DNA of 64,000 nucleotides, from assembly GCA_000146465.1 (NCBI GenBank), contig CP001947.1; one strand, 5' to 3'. Every line of letters begins with the position of its first letter. Position 1 is the stretch's first letter. The position numbers were made by a program, and so were the translations under genes. Positions 5,883 through 64,000 of the stretch are shown in pieces. The notes beneath the pieces are model-generated. The model made no database searches. It had not been told where the DNA came from and saw only the letters and a program-made list of their open reading frames with translations.

Positions 5883-5994
5883 TACCAAACCTTGAAAGGA
5901 AAAATATATCCTCTCTTCTCCTATTCAAATAGGAGATTGCCCAATAGGATCATCGGCCTCATTAAGGAGGACGATAAGGAGATGCCATGGCAAG

Positions 5995-13980: not shown

Positions 13981-14418
13981 TTATAAGGAAGGTTTATTTC
14001 TTTTGATCTTACAGACTATCTTACTGCTCATAGCCTGGATGTTATGCCGTATGGACTCGATGTCATTCATGATCCTTAGGGTTTCTCTACGATACTCCGT
14101 AAGAAGTTTTCCTAAGTACTCGATCTTCATCATTAGATTCTCACTTTTACTATCAACAGCCTCGTGGCGGAGAAGATGTTTCTTAAGAGGATCGCTTCGT
14201 GTATAATCCTTCCCACACAAATGACACTCGAAGGGCCGTTCTCCCGTATGTCTCCGTGCATGGGCAAGCAGTGCGTGCTTACTAACCTGGACTTCTCCAT
14301 ATCTCGGACAATCTTTCCACAAGCACCTAGCCTCCTCGTCCTTTTCTATGTGGGAGAGCAGATGACCTCTCACATTATCTTCGATGTCTTTCTGACACTC
14401 CTCCCATTCACATCTCAT
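13981..14418 (-). CDS. C2H2 zinc-finger protein
   Basis: Three C2H2-type fingers (CLWKDC...H, FECHLCGKDYTRSDPLKKHLLRH) plus a C-terminal coiled-coil. ATG confirmed. Confidence 0.7.
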   Translation of the reverse strand: MRCEWEECQKDIEDNVRGHLLSHIEKDEEARCLWKDCPRYGEVQVSKHALLAHARRHTGERPFECHLCGKDYTRSDPLKKHLLRHEAVDSKSENLMMKIEYLGKLLTEYRRETLRIMNDIESIRHNIQAMSSKIVCKIKRNKPSL

Positions 14419-27749: not shown

Positions 27750-27822
27750 GGCCTCATAGCTCAATGGTTAGAGTGTCGGCCTACGGAGCCGAAGGTTGAG
27801 GGTTCGAGTCCCTCTGGGGTCG
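27750..27822 (+). tRNA. tRNA-Arg (anticodon ACG)
   Basis: Cloverleaf: acceptor GGCCTCA/TGGGGTC, D-arm GCTC-AATGGTTA-GAGT, anticodon stem TCGGC/GCCGA with loop CTACGGA, T-arm GAGGG-TTCGAGT-CCCTC, discriminator G. No encoded CCA. Confidence 0.85.
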
Positions 27823-28404
27823 GCTGTCTTTTGTGCTTCTTTTTTTCTTCCTAGACTTTTTCATCCACATCTCTAGTGCATTGCTTCTGTATCTGCCCTG
27901 CACATCTTCATCCAACGAGTTCCACATCTTAATGAACATACGAACGTTTTCTTCTGGAGACACATTTATGTCGCCACAGATGTCGAAGAGTTCGTTTACA
28001 AAGAAAAGATATCCTGAACACTCCCATCGCTGTATATCCCGTATTTTAACATATTTTCTTAGCTTCTTTATCGTGTTTGTATCATTGACTAAATTGCCGT
28101 CGTCACAGCCATCCAACTCATTGGCTTCCTCAAGATCTTTATTGCATTTTTCCACATACATATTCCTCTCCTCGTCCGGCATTTCCTTCCATACAGCCAT
28201 CATATTCAAGGCAGTATCGACACAACTTGTGTATTTGTAATTATTACTTTGGAAAAAGTCCCTGGCAAAGACCGTGAATGGAGATCTCTGCTTGGTAGGC
28301 ATTGAATACAAGGATTCAAAAAATTTCATCTCGGGGGTATGTATCTTCGAAAAATACACCAAAGGAATTAGATAGTACAGTAGAGGCCAATAAATAGAGT
28401 CCAT
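27781..28404 (-). CDS. HMG-box protein (divergent single HMG box with extended C-terminal region)
   Basis: HMG box PTKQRSPFTVFARDFF...WKEMPDEERNMYVEK. The hydrophobic first 25 aa suggest the real start may be M26 (about 28329). The last 14 codons (...RDSNPQPSAP) are encoded antisense to the tRNA-Arg. Confidence 0.6.
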   Translation of the reverse strand: MDSIYWPLLYYLIPLVYFSKIHTPEMKFFESLYSMPTKQRSPFTVFARDFFQSNNYKYTSCVDTALNMMAVWKEMPDEERNMYVEKCNKDLEEANELDGCDDGNLVNDTNTIKKLRKYVKIRDIQRWECSGYLFFVNELFDICGDINVSPEENVRMFIKMWNSLDEDVQGRYRSNALEMWMKKSRKKKRSTKDSRPQRDSNPQPSAP

Positions 28405-29966: not shown

Positions 29967-30890
29967 TTAATGGGAGCAGAAGGGCTTTCTGCTGAGATTG
30001 TATATTAGTATCCCCACAATACTTATGGCTAATCCTGCATAGTTCAAACTGCTTAGGGTGATATCTTTTGTTACTATTGCATAAAAAATAATTATCAGCT
30101 CCTTAACAATCCCTGCAACACTTAGAAACACAACACCGGTTTCCGAAACAAGCATGAACTCTGCACATAGTAGCGTAAATGATAGGACCCCGCAAAGAGA
30201 AATATACCCAAAATTTCGTAGGGCAGCATCAAACGTGTTGAAAAACCTAGATGTTGCTATCTCCATGAGACCTTCAACATGCAAAGAAATTAAGAGGAGG
30301 AGGAACGATATGGGAAGGCAAAGGTCCCTTATGGTTACAAGAATTCCTTCCTTCCGGACTTCCTGATTTCTAATAAGGTATTGGACAAACGCCCATCGGA
30401 ACCCTGCCATCAAAGAAGCAAACGAGATGGTTCCGAATCCAATAATATCAAAGCTTGTGTTTTTTATTGACGTGAGAAACACTCCCACGCCAATGGTGAA
30501 TATCGTCAGAAAAAACGTTATCGATGGTTTCTCGATCCCAAGTGCAAATCCAAATAACAGAATAAACACCGGAGAAGAAGACTTCACCATTGTGTAGAAT
30601 GCAAGGGTTGCCGACCTTAGAGATATGGATGAAAGGCCTATGTCTGTGGCTCCTGCAAGGGCACATGGAAACGAAGGCCCAAAGTAATTAGGCTTTGGAG
30701 CTTTTTCCTTCTGAAACCTCAGGGCTGTGGATGCTCCGAAAAAATGGATCAGGTTCTGCATGGACGCCTTGAACAAGGGAAAGGAGAAATTGTATGTCTT
30801 TTTGGAAAGCAGAAACGATGTTAGATATCCCAGGCTTAATGACAGAACATAATACATGAGCACTAATCCCAGTACTCTGATTCTGTTCAT
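29967..30890 (-). CDS. TPT: triose-phosphate/sugar-phosphate transporter family protein (TPT, DMT superfamily)
   Basis: About 8-10 TM helices. TPT signatures ATLAFYTMVKSSSPVFILLFGFALGIEKPS and NYAGLAISIVGILIYN. ATG confirmed. Confidence 0.8.
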   Translation of the reverse strand: MNRIRVLGLVLMYYVLSLSLGYLTSFLLSKKTYNFSFPLFKASMQNLIHFFGASTALRFQKEKAPKPNYFGPSFPCALAGATDIGLSSISLRSATLAFYTMVKSSSPVFILLFGFALGIEKPSITFFLTIFTIGVGVFLTSIKNTSFDIIGFGTISFASLMAGFRWAFVQYLIRNQEVRKEGILVTIRDLCLPISFLLLLISLHVEGLMEIATSRFFNTFDAALRNFGYISLCGVLSFTLLCAEFMLVSETGVVFLSVAGIVKELIIIFYAIVTKDITLSSLNYAGLAISIVGILIYNLSRKPFCSH

Positions 30891-31016
30891 TCCTCTTGAG
30901 TGTATTTTCTTTGGAGAGTCTTTTCTTCACAATGTTTCAAAGCCCCATCCAATCACATTGTTGTGTCTGGAACAAATGAATTCTGGTTTCTATAAATATG
31001 TTTTTTTTCCTAGGCC

Positions 31017-31210
31017 CTACCTCTCAAGCCAATCGGCTTTGATCAAGTGTAGTATCTGTTCTTGCCAGTGTAAGAACTGGCATTATCCGTAAGGATAAAT
31101 TCATCGAATTTTTGGATGGCAGGGTGATGTAGAGGAGCTTGAGCGCTTGCGTTTCGGCCAATCTACTTGAGGTCTGCAGGCTTCTGGGCTGTAGAGCCTA
31201 GGAAAAGCCG
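31017..31210 (+). ncRNA. U2: U2 spliceosomal snRNA
   Basis: GGCUUUGAUCAAGUGUAGUAUCUGUUCUUGCCAGUGUAAGAACUGGCA is near-identical to the universal U2 5' region (branch-point interaction GUAGUA, stem IIa). Stem-loop I AAGCC-AAUC-GGCUU. Sm site AAUUUUUGG at about 31107. 3' stem-loops then a T7 run at 31211-17. Confidence 0.85.
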
Positions 31211-31268
31211 TTTTTTTGTAATGTTTTCTGTTCTATTTCTTTTATCCAAGGATCCCCAACTCAAAGAA

Positions 31269-32072
31269 ATGAAGTATGCGGAGATCATCATAGGGCCTCC
31301 TGGAAGCGGGAAGTCTACCTATGTCATGAATAAAAAGACATGGCTCTCCCATAGAAGTCCATACACAATAAATCTTGATCCGGGGAATTCCAACTCCAAG
31401 GAGTTTGACTATTCGATATGCTCCATCTCGTCGTCTTCGGTATATCAAGAAAAACATGATGTTGGGCCTAACATGTCCACAAAATGCATTTTAGAGGAAT
31501 TTGTTACTCGTATCGATGAGTTCTTCCGGGAGAACATTGAAGATACAGACCACTACGTCCTAATAGATTTTCCAGGACAGGTGGAATTTTTTATATCCAG
31601 CGATATTCCCAACAGAATCATCAGATATCTTAAAAGAAATGGATATTCGGTTGTGGTTTTGAATCTTATCGACCTGGTATTCTTCTCGAACAGTCACTCG
31701 CTGGTTTCATCGTATCTAATCTCGACATTGTGCCTCTGTCTTCTTGAGTCGGCCCAGATCAACATCATCAGCAAATGCGACAATTGGAAAAGTCTTGAGA
31801 TGGAGTATCCGTTGGAAGAGATTGCATCGTTGGAATGTCTAGAGGAGATTCCGAGGAAGAAAAAGTTGTATAGTGAGATGATCTCTTTTGTCCTCAACCA
31901 AGGACTGCTACTGTATGAAATCCTGGACTATGACAATCCAGACTCTGTTCTAAATCTTCAGGTTGGCATAGACAGAGCAAGCGGGTTGTTTTTTGAAGAC
32001 AACTACTTTGACACCGAGAAAATAACAAGGATTCCTTCCAGAGATGAGGTTTTCTCAAAATACAAATCCTAA
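31269..32072 (+). CDS. GPN-loop GTPase (XAB1/Npa3 family)
   Basis: P-loop IIIGPPGSGKSTY. GPN-like LDPGN. The track start is upstream run-through. In-frame ATG (MKYAEIIIGPPG) is at 31269. Confidence 0.65.
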   Translation: MKYAEIIIGPPGSGKSTYVMNKKTWLSHRSPYTINLDPGNSNSKEFDYSICSISSSSVYQEKHDVGPNMSTKCILEEFVTRIDEFFRENIEDTDHYVLIDFPGQVEFFISSDIPNRIIRYLKRNGYSVVVLNLIDLVFFSNSHSLVSSYLISTLCLCLLESAQINIISKCDNWKSLEMEYPLEEIASLECLEEIPRKKKLYSEMISFVLNQGLLLYEILDYDNPDSVLNLQVGIDRASGLFFEDNYFDTEKITRIPSRDEVFSKYKS

Positions 32073-40369: not shown

Positions 40370-41506
40370 ATGGGAGAGCACGAGACAAAGAGAAGGTACT
40401 CGCTTAGAAGAAGGAAGGATCCTTCGAAGGAGGTTACAAGGGCTAGAGGATCCAAGGTTGAGAAGGATTTAGACTTGGGTAGAACAGCCTTGATCGGGAA
40501 GTGGCTGGAGAAGCTAAAGGACCTTGGGCTGAATAGCGAAGAAAATACAATTCTAGAGAAGAAGAGTACGAGAGATGGGGAAGAGGTGTTTGGAGCTTCT
40601 AATAAAGAGGATTCCTGTATTGAGGAATGGAAAACGACATCAAATGAGGAGAGAAAGGAAAAGATTCGGCAGTTTGGTGGGATATCACATTTAGAATTTA
40701 AAGGACTGAGTCTAAATTTCCATCTTTATCTTCCAAAGACTCTCCAGAAGTTGTCAAGAATATTCCGCGTCTTAGAAACAATTCAACGCTTTAATACAGC
40801 AAGAAACCTGACAACGATTTTTATAAAATCGTTAGGATGTATAGAAAATCTTGTTAAACAGCGAGTGCAGGTGGAGGACATTGAAAGAATGTATTACATA
40901 GCTCCGAGGCTTTTTGGATTCAAAAGGATAAATATTCACCATGACGGAAAGGAAGTTAGGACTTTTGTCATTTATATTAATGGAGAAGCAAGGGAATTTA
41001 ACGAAGAGCTTGAGAGGTATGTTAAAGATTGCCACCTAAAGTTTCTCAAAGAGAGGGGATATGATTACAATGGAAATGGATTCCATCCTGAATTTGACTT
41101 TGAAGAGATCCCCTTGTATAGGAAGCCTTTATTTCCTGAAGAAGCTCAAGAGGAAGAAGCCTCTGGAAACGAAAACCTTATTCCGGTGAAAAGAAATCTT
41201 AAAATAGAAGAAGTAGCCAGGAAAAGAGCATCTACCATATTGGAAAGGATAAGGGAGAAGGAAAGGATGAGAAGAGAGGAGTTTATGAATAAATCTAAGG
41301 AGGAAGAGGATAATGTTCTTTTGAGCAATAGAATCCAAATCCTATTTAAGTCAGAAAACAAGCGTGCAATTCCAGTTAGTAGAGTCGTGGAGCTATTGAA
41401 GATATTTGATGGAGCAAACACAATTAACAGAATCATCAAATGGGATTCCTCTCTGTTTTACATAAAAACCATGAACGGAACGGAGTACCTTGTCTCTAAA
41501 GGCTAA
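40370..41506 (+). CDS. DNA replication licensing factor Cdt1-like (tentative)
   Basis: Central block LPKTLQKLSRIFRVLETIQRFNTARNLTTIFIKSLGCIENLVKQRVQVEDIERMYYIAPRLF resembles the Cdt1 winged-helix core. The C-terminal segment also resembles Cdt1_C. ATG confirmed. Confidence 0.45.
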   Translation: MGEHETKRRYSLRRRKDPSKEVTRARGSKVEKDLDLGRTALIGKWLEKLKDLGLNSEENTILEKKSTRDGEEVFGASNKEDSCIEEWKTTSNEERKEKIRQFGGISHLEFKGLSLNFHLYLPKTLQKLSRIFRVLETIQRFNTARNLTTIFIKSLGCIENLVKQRVQVEDIERMYYIAPRLFGFKRINIHHDGKEVRTFVIYINGEAREFNEELERYVKDCHLKFLKERGYDYNGNGFHPEFDFEEIPLYRKPLFPEEAQEEEASGNENLIPVKRNLKIEEVARKRASTILERIREKERMRREEFMNKSKEEEDNVLLSNRIQILFKSENKRAIPVSRVVELLKIFDGANTINRIIKWDSSLFYIKTMNGTEYLVSKG

Positions 41507-63879: not shown

Positions 63880-63951
63880 GGTTGCGTGGTGTAATGGTTA
63901 TCACTTCAGACTCTGAATCTGACAATCTGAGTTCGAATCTCGGCGCGACCA
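63880..63951 (+). tRNA. tRNA-Gln (anticodon CUG)
   Basis: GGTTGCGTGGTGTAATGGTTATCACTTCAGACTCTGAATCTGACAATCTGAGTTCGAATCTCGGCGCGACC + A. Acceptor GGTTGCG/CGCGACC, anticodon loop CTCTGAA, T-loop TTCGAAT. Close to canonical eukaryotic tRNA-Gln. Confidence 0.85.
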
Positions 63952-64000
63952 ATAGCTTTTGGCCCAAAGCTTAATTGTTTAAATTTTGCTGAGGACTCTT

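Follow-up and report, generated by a model that had tools for sequence, protein, structure and literature searches.

Small U2 genes with a GUAGUA box have reportedly been found in the reduced genomes of the microsporidia Vairimorpha necatrix (by DiMaria et al. in 1996) and Nosema/Antonospora locustae (by Fast et al. in 1998). The former study is said to have left doubts about the cap and the Sm site of the V. necatrix RNA. U2 and U6 orthologues of Encephalitozoon cuniculi and A. locustae are present in Rfam (Dávila López et al. 2008, PMC2396436), and a U2 snRNA gene is listed in the annotation of E. cuniculi (Grisdale et al. 2013, PMC3629993). In polyA-selected RNA-seq, the E. cuniculi U2 was covered by fewer than 20 reads, as the authors had anticipated of an RNA that lacks a poly(A) tail (PMC3629993). 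In the work of Whelan et al. (2018), U2 sequences of microsporidia were aligned with extended intron branch points (PMC6349667). As the syntenic orthologue of E. cuniculi is already catalogued, the U2 gene of Encephalitozoon intestinalis described here is already known in kind and is not a surprise.

In this report, the window is the whole stretch of DNA that was analysed (64 kb, about 41% GC). Its genes are densely packed on both strands. The whole window was scanned against all 4227 Rfam families. The covariance model of U2 (RF00004) matches positions 31017–31209 on the plus strand with 83.5 bits (E-value 5.6e-15), compared with a gathering score of 46. The match is thus not a low-scoring one, and it spans model positions 1–192 of 192. 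It is the sole snRNA match in the window. Even at a permissive Rfam threshold, the 64-kb window contains no second U2 match, no U6 gene and no other snRNA gene. The gene and its neighbours are as follows.

29967–30890, minus strand: TPT-family transporter gene (PF03151), upstream neighbour of U2
31019–31210, plus strand: predicted U2 snRNA body (Rfam RF00004; about 192 nt if the RNA ends just before the T-run)
31269–32072, plus strand: GPN-loop GTPase gene (PF03029), downstream neighbour of U2

Read from its ATG (31269–32069), the GPN open reading frame encodes a protein that matches the GPN-loop GTPase of E. intestinalis ATCC 50506 with 100% identity. TPT and GPN are separated by 378 bp, most of which is occupied by the U2 gene. 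Counted from the TPT start codon, U2 is predicted to start after 128 bp, and 51 bp (31218–31268) separate the end of the T-run from the GPN start codon.

Ten orthologous GPN loci, each with flanks of 3 kb, were compared with the window. They belong to E. romaleae, E. hellem, E. cuniculi, Ordospora pajunii, O. colligata and Nosema granulosis, and to four further microsporidian assemblies from public read sets (including loci L007, L009 and L010). A full-length Rfam U2 match (67.6–85.9 bits) is present in each of the ten, always in the TPT–GPN slot and in the same orientation. The original prediction had placed a U2 snRNA gene in the interval from TPT to GPN, and the Rfam score, the ten syntenic orthologues, the covariation described below and the literature on E. 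cuniculi all agree with it. On the basis of these comparisons, the reading as a predicted U2 gene is fully supported, and the locus is very probably a functional U2 snRNA gene of the microsporidian parasite E. intestinalis.

The U2 gene of E. cuniculi GB-M1 (AL590446.1; positions 2752–2922 of locus L003; Rfam score of 76.2 bits) occupies the same TPT–GPN slot in the same orientation. Its 5' 80 nt are nearly identical to those of the window, a TATA box is located at -28 and the Sm site is the same. The two genes differ in the sequence of stem-loops III and IV, where the pairing is compensated, and in the terminal run, which reads T4-G-TT in E. cuniculi and T7 in the window.

The 11 U2 genes were aligned with MAFFT, and the consensus fold calculated from this alignment with RNAalifold contains 38 pairs. 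Stem-loops I, IIa, IIb, III and IV follow each other in the canonical order of U2. The elements of the RNA are listed below; percentages refer to alignment cells.

31024–31042, plus strand: stem-loop I (seven pairs, 100% of cells paired)
31049–31054, plus strand: GUAGUA branch-point recognition box (100% identical in 11 species)
31063–31082, plus strand: stem-loop IIa (seven pairs, 98.7% of cells paired)
31083–31098, plus strand: stem-loop IIb (five consensus pairs, 90.9% paired)
31107–31115, plus strand: predicted Sm-protein binding site AAUUUUUGG (RAU3-6GR form, between stem-loops IIb and III)
31119–31177, plus strand: long stem-loop III (MFE fold), capped by the conserved GCGCUUGCG
31179–31209, plus strand: terminal bipartite stem-loop IV with a GUAG loop (from the fold, with covariation of the inner helix)

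The 42-nt string GATCAAGTGTAGTATCTGTTCTTGCCAGTGTAAGAACTGGCA is found at 31041–31082. It contains the branch-point region and stem-loop IIa, which the original prediction had recognised in it. The stem-loop I that had been proposed to precede it corresponds to a 7-bp hairpin at 31024–31042. Likewise, the proposed Sm site (AATTTTTGG at 31107–31115) is followed by two 3' stem-loops, the hairpins at 31119–31177 and 31179–31209. Stem-loop IIb had not been mentioned. The GUAGUA box falls within the invariant U2 sequence AUCAAGUGUAGUAUCUGUUCUU and is located in a single-stranded region (31043–31062), where it is unpaired in the MFE fold as well as in the consensus fold. The segment GCUUUGAUC is present and invariant in the U2 of all species compared.

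The Sm site includes an internal T5 (31109–31113). Nine of the 11 species share the core UUUUUGG, which is replaced by UUUCUGG in locus L009 and by UUCUUUGG in N. granulosis. When the sequences were folded independently, all 11 formed a long stem-loop III capped by GCGCUUGCG and followed by a terminal hairpin. The CUUG loop of stem-loop III is found at 31146–31149 and the 4-nt GUAG loop of stem-loop IV at 31191–31194. The outer helix of stem-loop IV differs by species (GGCU/AGCC, GCUCC/GGAGC and GCCA/UGGC). This helix and the basal helix of stem-loop III rest on the folds of the individual species, because MAFFT misregisters some species by one column.

Compared with the U2 of yeast and animals (RF00004 consensus), the window has the same AUCAAGUGUAGUAUCUGUUCUU sequence, stem-loops I–IV, CUUG loop and Sm site of the form RAU3-6GR. 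The 5' leader, on the other hand, reads CCCUACCUCUCAAGCC in the window and AUCGCUUCUCGGCC in the canonical U2. Furthermore, stem-loop III of the window is considerably longer, stem-loop IV has two parts and a GUAG loop of 4 nt, and the T-run abuts the last hairpin. In yeast and animals, U2B''/U2A' bind a longer loop of stem-loop IV. The GUAG loop is unlike that loop, which raises the question whether the U2B''/U2A' pair serves here.

Four elements flank the RNA or mark its predicted ends.

30991–30998, plus strand: TATAAATA box, likely core promoter, 28 nt before the conserved A at 31019
31001–31008, plus strand: T8 tract between the TATA box and the RNA start, T-rich at this place in most orthologues
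31015–31018, plus strand: CCCY block before the conserved ACCUCUC, initiator or first RNA bases
31211–31217, plus strand: T7 run, likely 3'-end or termination signal, starting one base after stem-loop IV

Nine of the 11 species have an exact TATAAAT at a distance of 26–28 nt upstream from the conserved A, and 90% of the cells of the TATAAATA box match the window sequence across species. The octamer is rare, with only five sites on both strands of the 64-kb window. Judged by its position and conservation, TATAAATA is likely the core promoter of U2. The CCC at 31015–31017 is invariant in all 11 species, and the sequence upstream of it diverges; the Rfam alignment begins at 31017. Because of this invariance, the predicted RNA start could be located anywhere from 31015 to 31019. 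An RNA of about 190–200 nt would result, probably started some 24–28 nt downstream of the TATAAATA box and ending at or just before the T-run that directly follows the last hairpin.

Two further sequences of the upstream region were noted. The T8 tract could stop polymerases reading in from upstream, or it could belong to the promoter. A CCAAT-like block (CCAATCACATTG, 30958–30969), about 50–61 nt upstream of the U2 start, is conserved in Encephalitozoon and inverted (GATTGG) in both Ordospora species. It could serve TPT or U2, since it lies in the region shared by these divergent genes.

At the 3' end, the terminal hairpin is followed in each of the 11 species by a T-run, which begins 0–3 nt beyond the last base that is paired. 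The lengths of the run are 7, 4, 3, 4, 4, 5, 6, 6, 6, 4 and 6; at least T4 is present in 10 of the 11 species and T3–T4 in five, with the shortening to T3–T4 found in the closest relatives of E. intestinalis. The window contains fewer T7 runs than expected (28 compared with 44), and the run after U2 is therefore not an effect of base composition. In Ordospora, the T-run still adjoins the hairpin although the GPN gene is located about 100 nt or more further away. Thus, the run is to be assigned to U2 rather than to the promoter of GPN. A generic scan of the window for hairpins followed by T-runs returned 13 sites (15.2 expected) and missed the bipartite hairpin of U2. From the 51-nt gap it follows that the GPN promoter must overlap the 3' region of U2, or that transcription of GPN begins within U2 or further upstream.

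GTAATG is found directly after the T7 run (31218–31223). TAATG or GTAAT is present at a matching distance in E. hellem, E. cuniculi and loci L009 and L007, and similar AT-rich words are found in locus L010 and N. granulosis. GUAA is the motif of yeast Nrd1. GTAATG could be a 3'-end element, a part of the GPN promoter or a chance occurrence in AT-rich DNA.

The original prediction had taken the T7 run as a hint of termination by RNA polymerase III. The run is present, one base past the end that had been assigned to the gene, but Pol III is not the favoured enzyme. Judged by the features of the sequence, the U2 of E. intestinalis is probably transcribed by RNA polymerase II. To our knowledge, U2 is a Pol II product in all fungi and animals that have been examined.

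The combination of a hairpin, an immediate T-run and a TATA box at -28 also matches the look of a Pol III gene. If a functional U2 were made by Pol III as in trypanosomatids, its start would be set by the TATA box and transcription would stop in the T-run after stem-loop IV. The constant distance of this run from the terminal hairpin, its length of at least T4 in all species but one and its place by the hairpin where the GPN gene is distant (Ordospora) are in line with such a gene, as is the conserved and rare TATAAATA at -28. A TATA box near -30 is known from type-3 and yeast U6 promoters of Pol III, but it does not discriminate here, because TATA boxes serve Pol II promoters too. T7 runs are depleted in the genome, yet one is located after U2 and one after tRNA-Arg. 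In addition, the U2 of V. necatrix was reportedly not recognised by an anti-trimethylguanosine antibody in the work of DiMaria et al. (1996), which would agree with synthesis by Pol III.

The Sm site points in the other direction. Its T5 is present inside the transcribed region in nine of the 11 species and exceeds the terminal run in E. romaleae (T4), E. hellem (T3), E. cuniculi (T4) and locus L007 (T4). The first T-run after both tRNA genes of the window is only T4 (for tRNA-Gln, within the 49 nt up to the end of the window), and the tRNA-Arg of N. granulosis is followed by a T7. If T4 is sufficient for Pol III in this genome, as is probable, the T5 of the Sm site at +91 should be a premature stop. 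Furthermore, no B box is located close to the gene, and 3.2 kb separate it from the nearest tRNA gene, which lies upstream. Within the window, the B-box consensus (at most one mismatch) is found only in tRNA-Arg (27801–27811) and at three distant sites.

The Pol III-transcribed U2 of Leishmania major resembles the gene of the window in being single-copy and in having a T-run (T6) where transcription ends (PMC4950102). Its promoter is formed by the A and B boxes of upstream tRNA-like and tRNA-Ala genes (PMC4950102), whereas the U2 gene of the window has a TATA box. UUAUAA replaces GUAGUA in L. major and its Sm site, AAUUACA, is devoid of a U-run (PMC4950102); in the window, the canonical GUAGUA and an Sm site with U5 are present. 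These arguments against Pol III are indecisive, because short T-runs fail to stop Pol III in certain contexts. Taken with the features that agree with it, synthesis of the E. intestinalis U2 by Pol III is considered unlikely.

A related proposition concerns the Sm-class U2 of Encephalitozoon, Ordospora and Nosema as a whole. According to it, this RNA is either a product of Pol III or else receives its 3' end by an unusual pathway that uses the hairpin and the U-run. As far as we know, such a pathway would be unlike the known eukaryotic ones, namely Integrator in animals and Nrd1-Nab3-Sen1 in yeast. A TATA box at -28 combined with a GC-rich hairpin and a T-run 0–3 nt behind it, as conserved in the 11 species, would be the expected appearance of such a gene. 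The internal T5 and the lack of a B box near the gene are circumstantial evidence against this proposition, which appears doubtful.

With Pol II as the probable enzyme, the hairpin and the U-run would be a 3'-end signal, for example an exonuclease stop that blocks 3' trimming and a binding site of a La-type protein on 3'-extended precursors. An arrangement of this type has been described for 3'-extended precursors of Pol II snRNAs in yeast. The conserved 3' end composed of hairpin and T-run is a modest lead. A literature search retrieved no studies on how microsporidia transcribe snRNAs or form their 3' ends, and nothing relevant on microsporidia and trimethylguanosine.

Conservation along the locus follows the architecture of the RNA. 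Identity to the window across all species is 0.42 far upstream, rises to 0.90 in the TATA box and reaches 0.97 in the 5' end with stem-loop I and 1.00 in the branch-point region. It is 0.90 in stem-loop IIa, 0.73 in IIb, 0.53 in stem-loop III and 0.44 in stem-loop IV, followed by 0.73 in the T-run and 0.45 downstream. The 3' half of U2 is conserved as structure and not as sequence. Standard pairs occupy 91.4% of the cells of the consensus helices, compared with 30–41% when the 3' partners are slid by 1–3 columns. Changes on both sides are found in 17 of the 38 pairs (4–11 when slid), and none of 500 shuffles matched any of the observed covariation measures.

At least two compensated pairs are present in each of the stem-loops IIa, IIb, III and IV. 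Both sides have changed in three pairs of stem-loop IIa, in two of IIb, in eight pairs distributed over two helices of stem-loop III and in four of the five pairs of the inner helix of stem-loop IV. In stem-loop I, five pairs are invariant and two vary on one side only. Covariation is uninformative for this stem-loop, because no pair varies on both sides. Near invariance of the 5' end, stem-loop I and the branch-point region, combined with stem-loops III and IV that retain only their structure, is the pattern expected of a working U2. For the divergent 3' half of microsporidian U2, the comparison of 11 species provides a structure that is backed by covariation.

This pattern bears on the proposal that the locus is a decaying relic of a U2 gene without function. 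Some microsporidia have lost introns and the spliceosome entirely, and splicing in E. cuniculi, with about 37 introns and about 35 predicted spliceosome proteins, is inefficient and occurs at a low level (PMC4829280). A relic would not be expected to retain a branch-point region that is 100% identical in 11 species and a 5' end with stem-loop I that is 97% identical, next to flanks that have diverged to about 42–54% identity. Compensatory changes keep four stem-loops, the gene has retained the same slot from Nosema to Encephalitozoon and the window holds a single U2 match even at the permissive threshold. Loss of function is thus very improbable.

Several open reading frames from the six-frame list are drawn across the U2 gene.

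30856–31092, plus strand: open reading frame over U2, 78 aa
31024–31161, minus strand: open reading frame over U2, 45 aa
31163–31291, minus strand: open reading frame over U2, 42 aa
from 31167, plus strand: TTG-started extension of the GPN open reading frame, beginning inside U2 (in the database, the protein begins with the ATG at 31269)

In E. romaleae and E. hellem, the closest relatives, no ATG-started frame of at least 25 aa covers U2, and the frames found over U2 in other species differ in strand, frame and length. None of the 11 loci, including a second assembly of E. intestinalis, has a called gene in the TPT–GPN gap. The frames over U2 are neither conserved nor called by gene finders, and their earlier description as spurious is appropriate. 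That the 78-aa (plus strand) or the 45-aa and 42-aa (minus strand) frames encode small proteins can practically be dismissed: apart from the presence of frames of 42–78 codons in the six-frame list there is no conserved frame and no gene call, and conservation tracks RNA helices rather than codons. As the gap holds U2, open reading frames drawn across it should be dropped. The value of this result lies mainly in the annotation, since the TPT–GPN gap of E. intestinalis and its relatives holds U2 and not small proteins.

In known systems, the GUAGUA of U2 pairs with the branch point of the intron and bulges the branch adenosine, the catalytic core is formed when the segment beside stem-loop I pairs with U6, and the Sm site binds the Sm ring. 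By analogy, the single-stranded GUAGUA box of the E. intestinalis U2 would pair with the intron branch point. The GCU..GAUC segment, which spans the 3' strand of stem-loop I and the adjoining bases, would pair with U6 and build the catalytic centre, AAUUUUUGG would bind the Sm ring and the stem-loops IIa, IIb, III and IV would hold U2-specific proteins. Pairing between U2 and the introns of microsporidia can extend over an unusually long stretch at the branch point (PMC6349667). The absolute conservation of positions 31043–31062 fits this long pairing.

An intron of the consensus GTAAGT...TACTAAC was not found in the window. Lone TACTAAC sites occur three times, with 4.3 expected. At 14245–14286 (plus strand), a GTATGT is located 31 nt upstream of a TACTAAC, which is an intron-like spacing. 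There is no AG in the 20 nt downstream and the site is apparently located inside coding sequence; thus, it probably arose by chance.

Two weak Rfam matches elsewhere in the window are probably due to chance as well. These are RMST_1 at 41092–41151 (minus strand; 24 bits, gathering score 40) and the C/D-box RNA sR53 at 5910–5957 (minus strand; 22.4 bits, gathering score 49).

Downstream of the tRNA-Gln(CTG) gene (63880–63951, plus strand), 49 nt are readable before the window ends at position 64000. Within 20 nt downstream of this gene, a T4 (63957–63960) is the only T-run; a run of this length may thus be enough to terminate Pol III transcription in this genome. The tRNA-Arg(ACG) gene (27750–27822, plus strand) overlaps by 42 nt, on the opposite strand, with the 3' end of the open reading frame at 27781–28404 (minus strand). 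This frame encodes 207 aa, and its orthologues are called as a faint HMG-box protein. Its last residues are read from the antisense strand of tRNA-Arg, which may reflect extreme compaction or an over-extended reading frame.
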